In this document: in pieces, positions 852 through 47,534 of the stretch
Layout of the letters: every line of letters starts with the position of its first letter
How positions within the stretch are numbered: position 1 is the first letter of the stretch
Assembly: GCA_965140935.1 (NCBI GenBank)
Contig: CBCSLL010000157.1
Coordinates: forward strand, 105,559-161,415
DNA length: 55,857 nt
Reading direction: 5' to 3'
Source: Rotaria magnacalcarata
Taxonomy: Eukaryota
Position numbers and translations under genes: made by a program
The notes under the pieces: model-generated
What the model saw: the letters and a program-made list of their open reading frames with translations, nothing else
Told to the model about the DNA's origin: nothing
Databases searched by the model: none

Positions 852-3295
852 TCAAGTTGTTTTCCATTTCATACGGACTACATGTCTTTCTGATCTTTTA
901 CGCGCTGGGTCATCTTCTGGAAAAAGTTTTGCCCGAATTTTCCATGCTTTCTCAAAATATTCTAAAGCAAGTTGATTCTCGTCCATCGCTTCATATTTAT
1001 GTCCTGCACTACTGAAACTTATTGCAAGATCAGAATGATCAAAGGGCAATACTCGTTCACGCATTTTTAACGCTTGCAAACGCAGTTCTAGGGCTTTCAC
1101 TTTTTCTCCTTTCACACTGAGAACGGTAGAGATACTATTAAGAGTAGTAGCAATTGCTGGATGATCCGAAGGAAAGCACTTTTTTTTCATAGCTAGTGCC
1201 AGATGATAATGATTGAAGGCTTTTTCATGTTGAATTTTAGTCTGATAGACATCAGCAATATTATGAAGAACATTAGCGATATTAGAATGATCTTCGGGTA
1301 AACATGCTTCATAAATTTGCAAAAGACGAAAGAAAAAAATTGAATGCTTTTTCACTATCTTTGGTCATTAGATGAACGATGCCGATTGAATTTACAGTTT
1401 CACCAATGTGAACATGAATTTTAGGTAAACAAACTCGCTTGGTATTCAATGCTTGTTCATAATAATGGAGTGCTTCACGATACTTGCGTAGTCCTCGATA
1501 GCACGATCCAATATTATGCAGGCAATGTGCCATTTCGAGTTGACGCAAACCATTTAACTCTTCCAATATTTGTTTTGCTCTATTACAGTACTTAAGCGCT
1601 TCTTCATATTGACCTTGCTCAACTAAAACATGACTCATGTTAAGTAATATATTTGTGGATTCTCGAAGCAAAGATGGATGAGATTTTCTCATCAGTTGAT
1701 AGGCTACATCAAAAGGATGCATAGCTTGCTCATATTCAGCATTGGTCTGACATACTAGGCCAAGTTGATTATGGATTTATGCAAGATTTTCATTTCCAGG
1801 ATCTCTTAATAATTGTTGAAAAGAAGTTTGAGCTGCCTGATAGTGACCCATCCGAGTCAATAGTGATCCAAATCATATTGATACACTATTTCCTTGCATT
1901 TCACTCTTTGTTTCTTCAATATACTGTCTAGCTATTTCTTGTCCTTCACCTGTTACACTTAATGAAATTTTCCACACATCATCTTCTTCAGTAACCGATT
2001 GAACTTTAAAAACGGTACCCAAGTCGAATAATACTTCTTGCTCGTCAGGAAAATTACTGAAATTTGTTATATCGGCAAAGACAGAAGAATTTTCCTCTTC
2101 GTTTCAACATTCAATCTCAAATAGTACTGGAACAGAGTCAGATTGATTTTTATCCTTTATAGCAAAATTAATCGCTATGGAACGTGAACGACTTGTGGAT
2201 AAATAACCATTAATGGAAATGAGTTTACCCTCATTGGATCGAAATTCTTCAAGTTCAACCAATGTTAATCGTACACCACGATAGACAGTTGTGAATATTT
2301 CATTATCAGTCTCCACCATCATTTTATTGTGTTCCCGTGCCAAGGTCAACGACAGATCCGCAATAAAGAAGCGAAAAGTATACAGCTGTTGAATATCTTC
2401 TGTACGCAGTGCTTTATTTAACATTTTATAGACAAAAGTCTCTCGTGTATACCACTGAATGCAATCTTCACTTGTATAAGAATTTTCAAATTCATCAATT
2501 GATTTTAATGCCCTTTCATTCCCTTGATGATAATTGCGACATGCATGAATCATTTGTTTTTGGCTTTAGGATTTGAAGGAAGCGAAACAATAACATTGTT
2601 ACATAATTGAAACCTATGAATACAAAGAACAGTATATAAAATCCAATGAAAATAACTATTTTATCAGGATTTTTTAATTGTCTATCCGTTGTATTAAGAG
2701 GTTCTACAAACTCTTTTATTTCACAAAGCTGCTAATGATGAGAGTCCTTTATTTTACGCAAAGTTTATTGCTTTAAAATTGAATTTTGATAAATCGCGAA
2801 AAAGATTCTTACCAAAGAAATTCTGCTGCGCGTTCTGATACATTGATCGAAATTTTCTGTTTTTGATTATAGAAACTGAATGTTTCCACTTGTTTATTGA
2901 GTAAACGAAGTTTTTTTTACAAAGGTTTGCGTCTAGCTCTATTCTATCAGTGAATATGCCAGATATCTTGGAAAATCTTTCCATCAAGTCTAAATTTTCT
3001 TCACGCCATGTACAATATATGAATACTGATTCGAGTTGTTTTAAATCAATAATAGGAGGTAACAAAATTGTACCCATATTTCTGAAGTACTCAAAAAACT
3101 TTTTTCGCCAGTGACTGATTTAATGTATGAAATGCATTCTTCTATGTTATTGTAAACGAGAACATAATCATTGATCTCACGTAAAGTCTTCATTCTATCT
3201 GCCATCGAATTCATCTCACCAATTTTTGAATCAAACCAAATCAGGGTAATATTCTCCTTATTCGTTTCTGATGATCGATCACATAGTGGTGCCAT
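852..3295 (-). pseudogene. Disrupted gene with an N-terminal domain of unknown function, then a mono-ADP-ribosyltransferase (R-S-EXE type) domain, then kinesin-light-chain-like TPR repeats. It carries in-frame stops and frameshifts.
   Basis: ORFs 3041..3295, 2754..3077, 2104..2553, 1309..1722 and 852..1355 are collinear on the minus strand. The ART motifs are visible in ORF 2104..2553: VYRG (Arg), YLSTS (STS) and FEIEC (EXE). TPR-like 34-aa repeats are in the last two ORFs. The single frame running 2553->1309 contains in-frame stops at 2104-2106 (TGA), 1873-1875 (TGA) and 1777-1779 (TAA). There are frame changes near 3050-3077 and at the A-run 1331-1338. Confidence 0.6.
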
Positions 3296-5113
3296 TTTAT
3301 TTCTTATTCACACAACAATCGTATTTCGACGTGTCACACTTTAACAAATGTCTCTATTGGTGCAAAAACAACATTTGTCTTGTTATTTACACGATTGTTT
3401 AATTTTCTTCCGTCGTCGAGGGAGACATGAAACATATTTGGAAAAAACTAACAGGTGACTGATTTCTTTTTTCGTTCTGTATTCTTTCGAATTCTTTTCA
3501 TGTCGATGGCAGTGCAGATTAATAATAAAGCGTCAGTCTACTTTTAAACAATGCGATAGACAGAATAGTAGAGGGAAAAAGTATAAAATCATAGCCAGTG
3601 AAGATTGAAACGCTATCGATGCTAGACATCTCGAGATGAATTTTGGATCAAAGAAAGGAGACGATATAAATCAGCTGAGTTTTACATGGGATCATCTTTC
3701 ATACGACGGACTAGAGTTCAACTTAGAGGCTGAACTAGTCACTTTGTTTTGTTCTTTGTCCTATCCATTCTCGTTCTCATACGTGTTGTAGTACTACAGT
3801 TCTATAAATACTTGAAACAGTTTATCATATCAAAGTATTCACACGAGATAACCAATTTAGCATTCGTTCATTACTAAGTTTAAACGAAATTATTGACTCA
3901 GGTATTTTATTCTCATGCAGTTTTTAACTCAGTCAGAATGTATATTTACAATTGTTAAAAATAATTAGTTTCTTATTTATGCTATTGGTGTGAATTATCA
4001 ACGTAATAAATGATTGATACTTATTGCGGCATGACCATGAGCTCATGATTTCATACGAGAAGCAATTTATAGATTTAAAAAATAATTACCACTGTATCAA
4101 CAGTATAGCAGTATATTGTTATCAATAGATATTACTATCTGATGTTAGCATCGTATGACTTTCTCACTAATCAATTAAATAATTAACTAGGCAGCTACGC
4201 CATAGGTTATAGTAAAATAATGAAACAGAGTGGACACGAATAATGTCGCCAATAATAAACAGATAGAATCCGAAGGTAATGACTTCGCCACTGGATCCTG
4301 CTAATTTCTAGTAGAAATCTGCAGGAAATACACGTCGTTTTCGGGCGAAAATGCTAGATTCCAAGTGCCTAACATTTTCTGACCGTACCTCATTGATCTA
4401 GGATAGACTTAAAATGAAAGACGACACTAATTGAGGTGTGCATTGTCAGATTCGTTTTTTCTTGGTTATACGGTATTCGCTGAATTTTCTCAAAACGTAG
4501 TTCGATAGTATTGAGAAACTCTTCTCGAAGCTTATGCTATTTTTTGATACATGTCGTCTCTAACGATCTATTGAAGTCAAGATGATTTCGGTTAGTTTCA
4601 TGAAATCATGCTACAAACTTTTCGGAAAAATTCAATTGCGTTGATAATATTTTTGATACCTATGCTGAAAGTCTAGTTTTAAATTCATGAAAAACTATAT
4701 TAATTTCTTTATGTTTTCGATAATTTCACTGAATTCCTTCTTCCAAATTCTGTAGAAACTATTTTCAAAGTTTGATGATGTGTTTAAGTGTTATTGTGCA
4801 TTTAATCAAAGAACACTGAGAACTATCAAAAAACAAAACTTGGCAAATTTCGAAGAACACTTTCTGTCAAACTTTCTATGTTTATCATTTTTTTTTAACT
4901 AGATATTGACTCTAACAAGTATTTCTTCTGACTGAAAGTAACAATCTTATATTGGAATAGTCTTGCTCGAATAAGTAATTATCATGATGTTTTCATTTTC
5001 GAAGTAGTTCATGCAATTCTAGTTTAATGATAGAAATATGCAACAAAAATAACATATGATTTAAAGCATAAAGATTCATCTATCAGCTAAAATAAGTCAG
5101 ATTAACTGTTGTG

Positions 5114-5929
5114 CTAATTTCTATAAGTCAGTTCTGCCAATACCGGCAGATGATCTGAGGGATAATACTTATTATTGGAATCAGCTAAATGTGCATGTCG
5201 TAACACTTCGAAGCGTGATGGTGTAATGAAAATGTAATCTATTCGATCATCTATACCATATTTTACGTCAAAGGTAGACCAAGTGCCATCGGGACCAGAA
5301 TGAGCAGATGCTGTCGAAAGTTTTGCATCTGCGAAGTTTATGCTATTTGTAATTGTATGATAAGCATCTGATTCAGGTTCTGAATTTAAGTCACCAGTCA
5401 AAATTGCACGTGCTGAGTATCCAACTATCTGCTCTATACGAGTTAAGATAAGTTTAGCACTTTCTCGACGAGCTATTAGACCTTTGTGATCAAAATGAGT
5501 ATTGAAATAAAACATTTCTTTGTTCATCAGTCGATCTCTGAGTTTGACCCAGCTGCATATACGTGGCAAAGCTGCATCCCATCCTTTAGTGCCAGGTTTA
5601 TCTGGTGTTTCTGACAACCAAAAAGTACCTTTCTCATTGAGTTCAAAACGATCATGCCGATAAAATATGGCACAGCACTCGCCATTATCTTTCCCATCGT
5701 TTCGACCAACAGCATAAGAACCGTAATTCGATAATCCAGATTTTAAATCTGTCATCTGTTTAGGAAGACATTCTTGAACACCAAGAATATCAGGTAAATA
5801 ATGCTGAATAAGATTAATAACACGGTCTTTACGAAAATACCATTGATTTCGACCATCAATAATAGTATCCAAACGAATATTATAAGTCATTACACGAAAC
5901 GGCCATGTATGTTGCTCGAATGACATCAT
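5114..5929 (-). CDS. Endonuclease/exonuclease/phosphatase (EEP) family hydrolase. Single exon, 271 aa.
   Basis: Uninterrupted ORF. EEP motifs are present: MTYNIR, LGVQEC, FNTHFDH, GDLNS and SDHLPV (C-terminal SDHxPV). There is no intron although neighbouring genes are intron-rich. TAG stop. Confidence 0.8.
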   Translation of the reverse strand: MMSFEQHTWPFRVMTYNIRLDTIIDGRNQWYFRKDRVINLIQHYLPDILGVQECLPKQMTDLKSGLSNYGSYAVGRNDGKDNGECCAIFYRHDRFELNEKGTFWLSETPDKPGTKGWDAALPRICSWVKLRDRLMNKEMFYFNTHFDHKGLIARRESAKLILTRIEQIVGYSARAILTGDLNSEPESDAYHTITNSINFADAKLSTASAHSGPDGTWSTFDVKYGIDDRIDYIFITPSRFEVLRHAHLADSNNKYYPSDHLPVLAELTYRN

Positions 5930-11224: not shown

Positions 11225-13100
<1,876 letters not shown>

Positions 13101-22498: not shown

Positions 22499-25087
22499 AT
22501 GCTTCATGGGAGTGCATCATATTTCATGGGCTGTAGTGATCCGCGCTGTCCAAAACATTCTGGATTACAACAAAAACTTGAGTTGCAACTTCAATATTCG
22601 GATAGAAAACATGACATAGAATTGCAAGTAAACGTTGATAGTTCACCAAAGATTACCATTTGTGATATTATAAAAGAACTTTTAAATTTTCTTTATCTCG
22701 ATGATATTTCTCCAGAAGAAGTTCGCTTGGTTGGAGTTAAGAATAAAAATAAGTACTTTAAGTTGAATGTGACAGATATACAGAAAACACTACGAGAGTT
22801 ACACGTGACCACTGATTGCATACTTCATTTCGAGCCAACATCTACTGCGTCCGCACCTAAACCATGTCAGTTGACGATATTTGGACCAGATGAGAAAGAA
22901 AAAAAAATATTTCAATGGTACAGAGCAAAAACAACATTGGCAATACTTCTCGAATATGTTATCGAAATATTTTCATTGCAGTCAATTGATCGTCATCAAC
23001 TTCATCTATTTACTATCTGTGATGAACTTGACTTGTTCTCTTGTTCTACAAGACGATTGATTGAATTAGGCGTTAATGACCGAATGGCAATTTATGTTCA
23101 GATCGTCTCATCGAGTTCATTGATGATCACCAATGAAAACATAGATGTTCATGTTGAATATGGTGATGAACATGAAAAATCAACTATCAACGTACGAAAT
23201 ACCGAAACGATGGGTGAATTAAAAATTCAAATTCAAAAACGGTATGAAGGTTATCGTATTAGTGAGTTCGAATGTTTCAATGAAAGAAAAGATTTGCTCG
23301 CTTCCGTTGATACGGATAAAAGTTTTAAATCCTTGGGTATTAAACCTGGTCAAAAGGTTTTTGTAAAAGTTCGTTTGACTTCTGAGAAAAATCAACTAGC
23401 TACTGCAAATGCTCAAAACAAAGCGTCTAATCAATCAGATTCGCCGTCAAGTACAAAAGCGAATTCTGACAAAGTTATTGTCAAATGGATCTTTCCAATG
23501 AAAAATTCCGAAAAGACAGAAGTATCACTTCAACATACAGTTAATCAACTAATTAAAAAACTAGAGGCCTTGGAACAGAACAATCGATTAGTTTTACATA
23601 AATTATCTTCAGATGTAGTAGAATTCGTCGTTACAAAAAGCAAGGAAACACATCGATCTTTGGCGGACTTAGGATTCAAATCAAATGATACGATTGATGC
23701 CACTATAAAAGTTAGGTCTCCTAAATACTCATCTATTGTCAGTAAAGAATCCCCTCCGTCACTCAGAGCAAATAAAATCCCAAAAGTTGATTGTATCACC
23801 AAAAGTCCAATAGGTTTGAACAATCTTGGAAATACGTGCTACATGAACAGTGCAATTCAATGTCTTGCTCATATACCACCATTAACTAATTTCTTTTTGG
23901 AAGGCTTTCATTATACTCACATGAACGATGGTGAACATACAGATGAGGATTGGAATCCATTTGATAAGATAGGCAGTGTCACTGGAGCATATGCTGATCT
24001 GCTTTGGAATTTGTGGAAACACGATGATAATGATCATGACTATGCTTCGTTTAAACCAATTCGTATTAAAGATACAATTGGCAATAAAGAATTACGATTT
24101 TCCACAAATGATCAACAGGATGCTCAAGAATTCATGACTTACTTTCTCGATGCTATACACAAGGAATTAAAAGAAAAAAATGACAACTCTAAATATACCA
24201 TAATAAAACAATTATTTTTCGGAGAAATAAAATCTATTATAAGATGTACTACATGCAATAATGATGAATCTACAATAAGTCCTGTTAGTTTTTTGTCCAT
24301 ACCACTCAATCGACAAGAACGAAAATTTTGGATTACTTATATTTCAAAATTAGGAAAGGATGAAACTGTCTGCGTCGATGTACCTATTAGTGGACATGTT
24401 GGACATGTTGTAGAAGAATTTGTTAAATATTATAAACAACCTGCACTCTTCTACCACATACTTGCTTTGGTACCAGATGGTGAACTCGATTTTGGAACAC
24501 CACTTAATCAATTATCTCATGATGAAATTATATTAATGGAGCAAGAAGAGCGTTCAAACAATAAACGACCTGAGAATTTGGAAATACCCGCCGAAAAATT
24601 AACTCTTCAAGATTGTCTAAAAGATTTTTTCTCACCAGAACATTTAGAAGCTGAATGGACTTGTCGACGAGCAACATGTAAAAAAAAGACGACAGCAACT
24701 AAACAACTTGAACTTTACAAGCTTCCACCTATAATCGTTATTCAATTCAAACGGTTTTCGCATGAAAATGGTTTACATCAAAAAATTGAAACGTTTGTAA
24801 AATATCCGATAAACGAACTAAATTTAAATGCATTTTCAACAGCTGGCCAACAAGAAACTGTTTATGATTTAATTGCAACTAGTAATCATATTGGATCGAT
24901 ATATGCAGGTCATTATATAGCATATGCTATGCATCGCATGTCGAATAAAAGTGAATGGTACAGGTTCGATGATTCGTGTGTAACACGTGTAAAACTTGAA
25001 GATTTGGAACAGGATATTGTATCGCAAGATGCTTATCTTTTGTTTTATATTAAAAGAGATATTCTAAATCCATTAGTAACAGTATAA
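22499..25087 (+). CDS. Ubiquitin carboxyl-terminal hydrolase (USP, peptidase C19), 862 aa, intronless. The N-terminal half contains about four UBL-like segments of roughly 90 aa each.
   Basis: Single ORF. Cys box GLNNLGNTCYMNSAIQCL. His box HYIAYAMHR...WYRFDDSCV. USP zinc-ribbon cysteines CTTCNN...CRRATCKKK. QDAQEF motif. TAA stop. Confidence 0.85.
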   Translation: MLHGSASYFMGCSDPRCPKHSGLQQKLELQLQYSDRKHDIELQVNVDSSPKITICDIIKELLNFLYLDDISPEEVRLVGVKNKNKYFKLNVTDIQKTLRELHVTTDCILHFEPTSTASAPKPCQLTIFGPDEKEKKIFQWYRAKTTLAILLEYVIEIFSLQSIDRHQLHLFTICDELDLFSCSTRRLIELGVNDRMAIYVQIVSSSSLMITNENIDVHVEYGDEHEKSTINVRNTETMGELKIQIQKRYEGYRISEFECFNERKDLLASVDTDKSFKSLGIKPGQKVFVKVRLTSEKNQLATANAQNKASNQSDSPSSTKANSDKVIVKWIFPMKNSEKTEVSLQHTVNQLIKKLEALEQNNRLVLHKLSSDVVEFVVTKSKETHRSLADLGFKSNDTIDATIKVRSPKYSSIVSKESPPSLRANKIPKVDCITKSPIGLNNLGNTCYMNSAIQCLAHIPPLTNFFLEGFHYTHMNDGEHTDEDWNPFDKIGSVTGAYADLLWNLWKHDDNDHDYASFKPIRIKDTIGNKELRFSTNDQQDAQEFMTYFLDAIHKELKEKNDNSKYTIIKQLFFGEIKSIIRCTTCNNDESTISPVSFLSIPLNRQERKFWITYISKLGKDETVCVDVPISGHVGHVVEEFVKYYKQPALFYHILALVPDGELDFGTPLNQLSHDEIILMEQEERSNNKRPENLEIPAEKLTLQDCLKDFFSPEHLEAEWTCRRATCKKKTTATKQLELYKLPPIIVIQFKRFSHENGLHQKIETFVKYPINELNLNAFSTAGQQETVYDLIATSNHIGSIYAGHYIAYAMHRMSNKSEWYRFDDSCVTRVKLEDLEQDIVSQDAYLLFYIKRDILNPLVTV

Positions 25088-46493: not shown

Positions 46494-47534
46494 TTGAAAA
46501 ATAACATACAGACAATCATGGCAAACGAAGAGAATATCTTGCCTACACAAATAATAGTAGGTGTAGTTGGTATAGGACTCATGGGCTCTAGTATTACTAC
46601 TTGTCTCTTAATAGCTGGTCATCAAGTTATAGCAGTCGCTCCAATTCCAATCGATCTTGAAACTGCTGAAACTCGTATTCATGAACATCTCGTTCGATCA
46701 TTTGAACAAGAAATATGTTTAGAAAAGCCAGTTTATTACTTAAAAAATTTGACTATTACCGAAGATTATAATTGTCTTAAAGATACTTCCTTAGTTATTG
46801 AATGTACTCTTGAAGATATTACAATCAAAAAACAAGTGTATAAAAATATTGAAAATGTCGTATCGAATGAAACTATCATTACAAGTAATACATCAGCCAT
46901 TCCCATTAGTCTTCTGCAAGAAGAGGCTTGTATACCGAGTCGATTTTTTGGATTACACTGGGCTGAGCCATCTCATACAACACGATTTTTAGAAATTATT
47001 TGTGGTAACAAAAGTGATCAGCAGAAAGCTGAATGGTTATATCAACTTTCACATCATTGGGCTAAAGAACCAACACTCGTAAGAAAAGATATTCGTGGCT
47101 TTATCACCAATCGTCTTATGTATGCTTTATATCGAGAAGCGTTTTATCTAGTCGAAAATGGATATGCTACTGTTGATGATGTTGATCGAGCATGTCGCAA
47201 TAATGCTGGTTATTGGATGACATTTGTTGGTTGCTTTCGATGGATGGATCTTACAGGTATTCCAGCTTATCATGCTGTTATGCGAGATTTATTGCCTACG
47301 CTTTATAATGAAACTGAGATACCGAAACTTATTGATGATATTGTTAAAACAGGTGGAAAAGGTATTCTAAATGGTAATGGTTTCTATAATTATACACCAG
47401 AAGAGGCTCGTTTATGGCGTGAAACTTTTGAAGAGTTTAGTTATGATATTCGACGATTAGCATTGAAATATCCTGTTGATGTTGTCACTAGGAAATTGAA
47501 TGCCCTAGAGAAAAAAAATGAAACTCAAGATTAA
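46494..47534 (+). CDS. 3-hydroxyacyl-CoA dehydrogenase family protein (3-hydroxybutyryl-CoA dehydrogenase-like). Intronless, 346 aa.
   Basis: Rossmann motif VGVVGIGLMGSSI. ITSNTSAI corresponds to the family ILASNTSS. GLHWAEPSHTTRFLEIICG matches GMHFFNP..KLVEV. GFITNRLM matches PGFVVNR. The C-terminal GKGILNGNGFYNY matches GKGFYDY. TAA stop. Confidence 0.8.
   Translation: MKNNIQTIMANEENILPTQIIVGVVGIGLMGSSITTCLLIAGHQVIAVAPIPIDLETAETRIHEHLVRSFEQEICLEKPVYYLKNLTITEDYNCLKDTSLVIECTLEDITIKKQVYKNIENVVSNETIITSNTSAIPISLLQEEACIPSRFFGLHWAEPSHTTRFLEIICGNKSDQQKAEWLYQLSHHWAKEPTLVRKDIRGFITNRLMYALYREAFYLVENGYATVDDVDRACRNNAGYWMTFVGCFRWMDLTGIPAYHAVMRDLLPTLYNETEIPKLIDDIVKTGGKGILNGNGFYNYTPEEARLWRETFEEFSYDIRRLALKYPVDVVTRKLNALEKKNETQD

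Follow-up and report, generated by a model that had tools for sequence, protein, structure and literature searches.

The stretch of DNA analysed here, which we call the window, comprises 55,857 nucleotides of the genome of the bdelloid rotifer Rotaria magnacalcarata (contig CBCSLL010000157.1, positions 105,559 to 161,415). At positions 852-3295, on the minus strand, the window holds one gene whose coding sequence is fragmented over several frames. The gene has two exons, and its conceptual product consists of three domains: an N-terminal alpha/beta domain (N-domain), an ADP-ribosyltransferase (ART) with an R-S-E triad, and kinesin-light-chain-like tetratricopeptide repeats (TPRs). We propose, with a probability of about 0.9, that the locus is a unitary pseudogene of R. 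magnacalcarata, in which an N-domain/ART/TPR gene has recently been disabled. Its parts are arranged as follows (window coordinates, all on the minus strand):

852-3295, the whole presumed pseudogene (N-domain/ART/TPR) of R. magnacalcarata, with the ATG at 3293-3295 and the ancestral stop codon at 852-854
2813-3295, exon 1, encoding the N-terminal alpha/beta domain, with two frameshifts
2614-2812, the sole intron, 199 bp, phase 2, TG/GTAAGA...CATAG/G (slashes mark the splice sites), with GT and AG both preserved
852-2613, exon 2, encoding a linker, the ART domain and the TPR array, with two frameshifts and three nonsense codons
1954-2460, match to the Pfam family ART (PF01129), crossing the first in-frame stop; residues 34-202 of the conceptual fragment beginning at 2559
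855-1872, TPR array of the kinesin-light-chain/nephrocystin-3 type (TPR_12, E=3.7e-37; TPR_10, E=5.5e-28)

The intron, which was overlooked in the initial annotation of this DNA (made from the letters alone), was placed by means of the R. socialis gene. There, its position allows an exact reconstruction of the protein P0127, and it was carried over to the window via the alignment. The R. socialis intron measures 201 bp and differs from that of the window by 5.6%. The predicted ancestral protein has ~747 residues with no evident signal peptide, and its TPR part, predicted to be of the kinesin-light-chain type, accounts for ~340 of them.

For the Pfam search, the frames of the C-terminal 568 residues were joined and the stops masked; matches to four families were obtained. 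PF01129 is the best-scoring ART family (E=1.6e-11, 44.4 bits against a cut-off of 22.3), and ADPrib_exo_Tox (PF03496) is matched as well (E=1.7e-8, 34.4 bits against a cut-off of 23.4). The intact orthologue P0127 gives PF01129, PF03496 and TPR matches as does the window translation. The N-terminal ~165 residues have no significant Pfam match even at E<=10, with OKR_DC_1_N and Thioredoxin_9 appearing below threshold only. These results agree with the initial annotation, which had read the locus as an ART of bacterial toxin type, preceded by an uncharacterised N-terminal domain and followed by TPRs, and had proposed a search of the stop-masked translation. That search recovers PF01129 together with TPR_10 and TPR_12, the ART and the TPRs are indeed fused in the conceptual translation, and the N-terminal domain falls into no Pfam family.

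Three motifs define the catalytic centre of the ART domain (minus strand):

2275-2286, VYRG, with the catalytic/NAD-binding Arg of the R-S-E triad; aligned with the YRG of Vis (4xzj), R and G invariant in the family alignment A4
2191-2205, YLSTS, the S-T-S motif, supported by the Vis alignment and by invariant columns of A4
2026-2049, PDEQEVLF, the true EXE region, with EQE at 2035-2043; aligned with KEAEVLF of Vis and with the EXE of Lmo0066 and XopAI

The initial annotation had placed a complete R-S-EXE signature (VYRG, YLSTS and FEIEC) within the open reading frame (ORF) at 2104-2553, which encodes 149 residues. VYRG and YLSTS are present there, but FEIEC (2107-2121) is the strand preceding the ARTT loop and not the catalytic EXE, as judged from the Vis alignment and the columns of A4. 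In a phmmer comparison with the Vis toxin (4xzj), YRG pairs with YRG, STS with STS and SDFPDEQEVLF with SEYSKEAEVLF; Lmo0066 and XopAI align at the E-x-E too. The residues R93, G94, S120, S122, E172 and E174 are invariant among the 27 family ART domains of A4, and conservation at these six positions reaches 90% or more across 60 diverse full-length members. The ARTT loop of the window reads SNFPDEQE, in agreement with the consensus X-X-aromatic-X-X-E/Q-X-E (PMC7827354). The arginine specificity of the intact protein, which is predicted to be a mono-ADP-ribosyltransferase of C3/Vis type, is deduced solely from the E-x-E form of this loop, as this form commonly goes with arginine specificity (PMC7827354).

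The codons of the ARTT loop lie downstream of the TGA at 2104-2106, and nowhere in the window does a single ORF contain R, S and EXE; the three are translated together in the orthologues of R. socialis and Rotaria sp. Silwood-1. Because the true EXE follows the first stop, the 149-residue ORF is without catalytic glutamates and thus cannot be an active transferase. More generally, no ORF at the locus can encode one.

The lesions were scored relative to the R. socialis gene, and seven R. magnacalcarata copies were compared (minus strand):

3072-3073, frameshift 1, 1-bp deletion (ancestral GCA to G-T), polymorphic
2911-2918, frameshift 2, homopolymer expanded from A6 to A8 on the coding strand (+2)
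2557-2562, frameshift 3, 1-bp deletion (A6 to A5), adjoining the run at 2557-2561, fixed in 7/7 copies
2104-2106, nonsense 1, CGA (Arg331) to TGA, truncating the product before the ARTT loop; TGA in 7/7 R. magnacalcarata copies and CGA in 7/7 of R. socialis
1873-1875, nonsense 2, TTA (Leu408) to TGA, fixed in 7/7 copies
1777-1779, nonsense 3, TAT (Tyr440) to TAA, fixed in 7/7 copies
1320, frameshift 4, 1-bp insertion of a coding-strand G outside any homopolymer, fixed in 7/7 copies

In six separate R. magnacalcarata assemblies, one locus each matches the region at 99.6-100% identity; four of these assemblies were built from Illumina reads of individual animals caught in the wild (PMC7943196). 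Of the seven lesions, five (the three stops and frameshifts 3 and 4) recur unchanged in these six independently assembled loci, and every copy compared carries at least six lesions. The two remaining indels are polymorphic. Frameshift 1 is missing from L005 (individual RM15), where GCT is retained, and is present in the other six copies; frameshift 2 is +1 in L002 and L005 (individuals RM9 and RM15) and +2 in the rest. As these two indels still segregate among individuals, the gene is still decaying.

The interruptions thus correspond to those of the initial annotation, which had listed three in-frame stops (TGA, TGA, TAA) and unspecified frameshifts, of which four exonic indels are now located. 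Its 'about 80' stop-free codons after the first stop amount to 76. Between recent inactivation and sequencing error, which it had left side by side, the recurrence of the same stops in six independently assembled loci decides for the former.

Orthologues of the gene are intact in two sister species. In R. socialis, P0127 and P0128 have 747 residues, and the gene is 95.3% identical to the window at the nucleotide level over its full length. It occupies positions 6001-8445 in L009-L015 (seven loci from seven assemblies) and is carried by 12 contigs. The window and R. socialis share the gene order Peptidase_C1, Exo_endo_phos, ART-TPR gene, ubiquitin. The orthologue of Rotaria sp. Silwood-1 (L007) is likewise syntenic, with 749 uninterrupted codons (748 residues and a stop) including the N-domain exon. 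Both orthologues share neighbourhood, exon-intron structure and all three domains with the window copy, which in codon-aligned amino acids is 93% identical to R. socialis. They differ from it in having open frames and a low ratio of nonsynonymous to synonymous substitution rates (omega 0.14-0.18), whereas the window copy has its seven disabling lesions. The copy can therefore be called decaying, as the initial annotation had done.

In the public records, the Silwood-1 gene model P0001 (599 residues) starts at an internal Met and misses the intact N-domain exon (L007:9554-10036), which lies upstream of an intron of ~640 bp. Several family matches of ~566 residues with ART and TPRs only are probably mis-modelled in the same way.

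How recently the gene was lost can be estimated from the substitutions. Between R. magnacalcarata and R. socialis, synonymous divergence (dS) is 0.109 and nonsynonymous divergence (dN) 0.027 (Nei-Gojobori). Between R. socialis and Silwood-1, omega is 0.18, with values of 0.16-0.20 across all three domains. When changes are polarised with Silwood-1 as the outgroup (nonsynonymous:synonymous site ratio 3.85), the R. magnacalcarata branch has 27 nonsynonymous changes and 3 stops against 18 synonymous ones, compared with 10 against 19 on the R. socialis branch (30:18 versus 10:19, Fisher p=0.02). The corresponding omega values are ~0.4 and 0.14. The R. magnacalcarata counts still fall below the neutral expectation (binomial p=0.007), and the gene was therefore constrained for part of the branch. 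A two-phase model, based on small counts, gives a rough estimate for the inactivation of the last quarter to third of the R. magnacalcarata branch, after the split from R. socialis. Measured against the species split, 'recent' and 'freshly decaying', as the copy had been described, are fair terms given these lineage-specific counts. In the window copy, both the TPR part and the N-domain part have acquired radical substitutions.

From these data the following scenario may be drawn. In the intact protein, the ART would bind NAD+ via the Arg and the S-T-S motif and transfer ADP-ribose by means of the EXE glutamates. The TPR array would select a partner or ligand, and the N-domain may regulate the enzyme or mediate self-association. 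After the split from R. socialis, the gene was disabled in R. magnacalcarata, where three nonsense changes and four frameshifting indels have accumulated, with the first stop taking away the catalytic glutamates. This loss was probably tolerable, because full-length family members remain in the R. magnacalcarata genome, namely P0102 (674 residues) and P0086 (622 residues, a partial record). The search for intact relatives that the initial annotation had proposed thus had a divided outcome: full-length members exist in the species, but the 90%-identity cluster of the 149-residue ORF contains no intact R. magnacalcarata protein. Within the window itself, a tblastn search for a paralogue matched the locus and nothing else.

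Several points weigh against the pseudogene reading. The locus could still give rise to a shortened protein with the N-domain or to one made of TPRs alone (models of 245-273 residues). The assemblies are collapsed haploid representations, so that an intact second haplotype is formally possible. The contrast between the branches is drawn from small counts and has p=0.056 when the stops are left out. Finally, the arginine specificity and the parts given to the TPR array and the N-domain are predictions from motifs and architecture.

The first of these points can be extended to a reading in which the locus has been remodelled, and its N-domain, 149-residue ART or TPR-only ORFs are expressed and serve as decoys for paralogous ART-TPR proteins or regulate them. 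The 149-residue and the 245-273-residue TPR models are predicted at all six loci, the upstream region and splice sites are kept, and short N-domain-only models are common throughout the family, all of which would fit such a change of use. We nevertheless regard it as very improbable. The TPR model requires an invented small intron past the frameshift at 1320, the ART fragment lacks the catalytic loop, and radical substitutions have entered the TPR and N-domain parts. The short models elsewhere fit decayed copies or fragmented annotation equally well.

It is very improbable, too, that the broken sequence is one haplotype while an intact homologous copy in the degenerate tetraploid genome keeps the function. 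Bdelloid assemblies of this kind do merge homologous copies (PMC7943196), and the missing frameshift 1 in RM15 means that haplotypes differ. However, each copy looked at has six lesions or more, and the 149-residue ORF is found on 13 R. magnacalcarata contigs, with a cluster that includes the R. socialis proteins of 747 residues and no intact one from R. magnacalcarata.

An intact gene in the living animal, with stops and frameshifts that are mere errors of assembly or sequencing, is effectively refuted: three of the four indels do lie in or beside homopolymer runs, which are error-prone on some platforms, but the three nonsense changes are substitutions and not indels, the lineage shows an excess of nonsynonymous changes, and the occurrence of identical lesions (three stops and two indels) in six assembled loci, four of them from Illumina data of single individuals, excludes such errors.

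A disabled gene is thus the reading that we retain, and it has consequences for the public records. In these, the one dead gene is split into two 'genes' (window 2104-2553 and 852-1722; L001-L006), as gene callers predict a 149-residue model and a TPR model of 245-273 residues at all six loci. The TPR model depends on an invented short intron that skips the +1 frameshift at 1320. The UniRef name of the 149-residue product, 'NAD(+)--protein-arginine ADP-ribosyltransferase', is given despite the missing EXE and is attached to a protein found on 13 R. magnacalcarata contigs. P0127 and P0128 of R. socialis, which fall into the same 90%-identity cluster, are named 'NAD(P)(+)--arginine ADP-ribosyltransferase'. 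The analysis is thus of corrective value, as a locus annotated as two protein-coding genes is really a single dead one. The locus itself is ordinary, a species-specific pseudogene of an already annotated family. It nonetheless offers a dated gene loss in an asexual animal, with two sister species intact, most lesions fixed and two segregating.

The intact protein can be compared with several known systems. With bacterial C3-like and Vis-type toxins it shares a predicted fold. The AlphaFold2 model, a confident one, of the ART domain of P0002, a relative from Silwood-2 (residues 1-228, pLDDT 86.6), gives 117 PDB matches in Foldseek at E<=1e-3, led by Vis, Certhrax, C3, HopU1, C2-I, ExoS/T and VIP2, with E-values of 4.6e-11 to 1e-7 for the C3-like and Vis-type toxins. 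Together with the Pfam scores, which exceed their thresholds, this supports the toxin-type assignment of the initial annotation. The R, S-T-S and ARTT E-x-E of Vis-type toxins occur at aligned positions in the rotifer protein, but identity to the bacterial toxins is just 13-23%. Unlike them, the rotifer protein is the product of an animal gene with an intron, is without secretion signal or translocation component, and has its ART flanked by the alpha/beta domain and the TPR array. Among 185,579 prokaryotic genomes, searched with a single peptide pattern of limited sensitivity, no bacterial relative of the ART domain was confirmed.

Vertebrate ecto-ARTs (ARTC) are secreted or anchored by glycosylphosphatidylinositol (GPI). 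They have the R-S-EXE signature and PF01129 in common with the rotifer protein. Unlike them, P0127 has a hydrophilic N-terminus (MASLCDRSSETNRENI...) and TPRs of cytosolic type. On direct reading, neither a signal peptide nor a GPI anchor signal is evident in P0127, which is hydrophilic at both ends (MASLCDRSSETNRENITLIW at the N-terminus, ...RHVVRMKWKTT at the C-terminus). No ecto-ART structure is found in the top 50 structural matches of the P0002 model.

Kinesin light chain and nephrocystin-3 contain the same TPR_12/TPR_10 repeat type, and several family members have been automatically named 'Kinesin light chain'. In contrast to kinesin light chain, the rotifer protein has no kinesin-binding heptad region and carries its TPRs after an enzymatic domain. 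An NTPase of the NLR/STAND type (NACHT or NB-ARC) is absent from the Pfam matches of both the window translation and P0127.

For the N-domain, the corresponding domain of the paralogue P0013 was modelled. The model predicts a flavodoxin/CheY-like alpha/beta fold, with a resemblance in fold only. It shares the receiver fold with CheY-like receiver (REC) domains at 5-13% identity, and a Foldseek search of the PDB returns generic flavodoxin-like folds with nothing at E<=1e-3. There is no Response_reg match in Pfam even at E<=10, and strand 3 (KIFLITSG) ends in T-S-G, with no phospho-acceptor Asp.

The gene belongs to a very large family. With a profile of the N-domain, 3,539 cluster representatives (clustering at 50% identity) are recovered at E<=1e-3 and 1,847 at E<=1e-10, and all named matches are from bdelloids (Rotaria, Adineta and Didymodactylos). 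Among 60 long members, TPR_12 is found in 56, ADPrib_exo_Tox in 37 and ART in 30 (E<=1e-5). These members match 38 families, of which the 25 most frequent include no NTPase family. In the searchable full-text literature we found no description of a bdelloid or rotifer ART-TPR family; an expansion of TPR families in Adineta vaga has been remarked on in general terms (PMC3846280).

Many of the family matches are N-domain-only models of 130-280 residues, some of which stop abruptly after 'YYRGN'. In R. magnacalcarata, truncated models of this kind are P0148, P0183 and P0191. They resemble additional members of the family that have decayed or become fragmented, a pattern that would be compatible with birth-and-death turnover. 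Intronless members also occur in JGI/ENA metagenome records (L016 and L017), labelled 'Tfp pilus assembly protein PilF' or 'TPR repeat protein'. A bacterial origin of the metagenomic homologues was rejected for the contig with P0020 (797 kb, 37% GC). Here the gene lies among animal genes (actin, Jagunal, DHHC and Macoilin), and the contig is therefore animal DNA that was run through a prokaryotic annotation pipeline.

The role of the family in innate immunity or conflict that the initial annotation suggested is putative. Tentatively, the family may be a very large, bdelloid-restricted set of cytosolic sensor-effector proteins, in which the TPRs would act as the sensor, the C3-like ART as the effector and the REC-like N-domain as a switch, serving immunity or stress and evolving by birth and death, although we consider this full picture rather doubtful. 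Against such a role, purifying selection of the ordinary kind acts on the intact orthologues at the locus (omega 0.16-0.20), and an NLR-like NTPase is absent. In A. vaga, 'ADP-ribosylation' is enriched, together with 'microtubule-based processes', among genes over-expressed on desiccation or irradiation, and in spaceflight it is enriched among under-expressed genes, which the authors attribute to poly(ADP-ribose) polymerases (PARPs) (PMC10809525, PMC12220480). This Gene Ontology enrichment could come from ART-TPR genes that received the two terms by way of PF01129 and 'kinesin light chain', and not from PARPs.

The family is a more interesting object than the locus, as it joins a toxin-type ART, TPRs and an uncharacterised N-domain in thousands of sequence clusters. 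Should its members act as effectors in immunity or stress, the family would illustrate the use of domesticated toxin enzymes on a large scale in an animal. If the sensor-effector reading is true, the R. magnacalcarata locus would represent a dated, species-specific death event.

Upstream of the ART-TPR gene, R. socialis has a 423-bp insertion (L009:5348-5770, ~230 bp from the gene), with the empty site at about 3517-3525 of the window. The insertion is ~78% identical to its own reverse complement, akin to a foldback or miniature inverted-repeat transposable element, and a TTATTAG repeat flanks it. A promoter deletion was considered as the primary lesion in R. magnacalcarata and rejected, because R. 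magnacalcarata has the empty site and the 423-bp difference is this palindromic insertion in R. socialis. The upstream region and the splice sites of the R. magnacalcarata locus are preserved.

Further along the window lie ordinary animal genes, in line with the metazoan host assumed in the initial annotation, which is R. magnacalcarata:

5114-5929, Exo_endo_phos protein, 271 residues, intronless
11225-12082, carboxylesterase exon
22499-25087, USP/UCH deubiquitinase ORF, 862 residues
40947-41921, major vault protein exons
46494-47534, 3-hydroxyacyl-CoA dehydrogenase

The 271-residue Exo_endo_phos protein (5114-5929) and the 149-residue ORF (2104-2553) are exact matches to R. magnacalcarata proteins.

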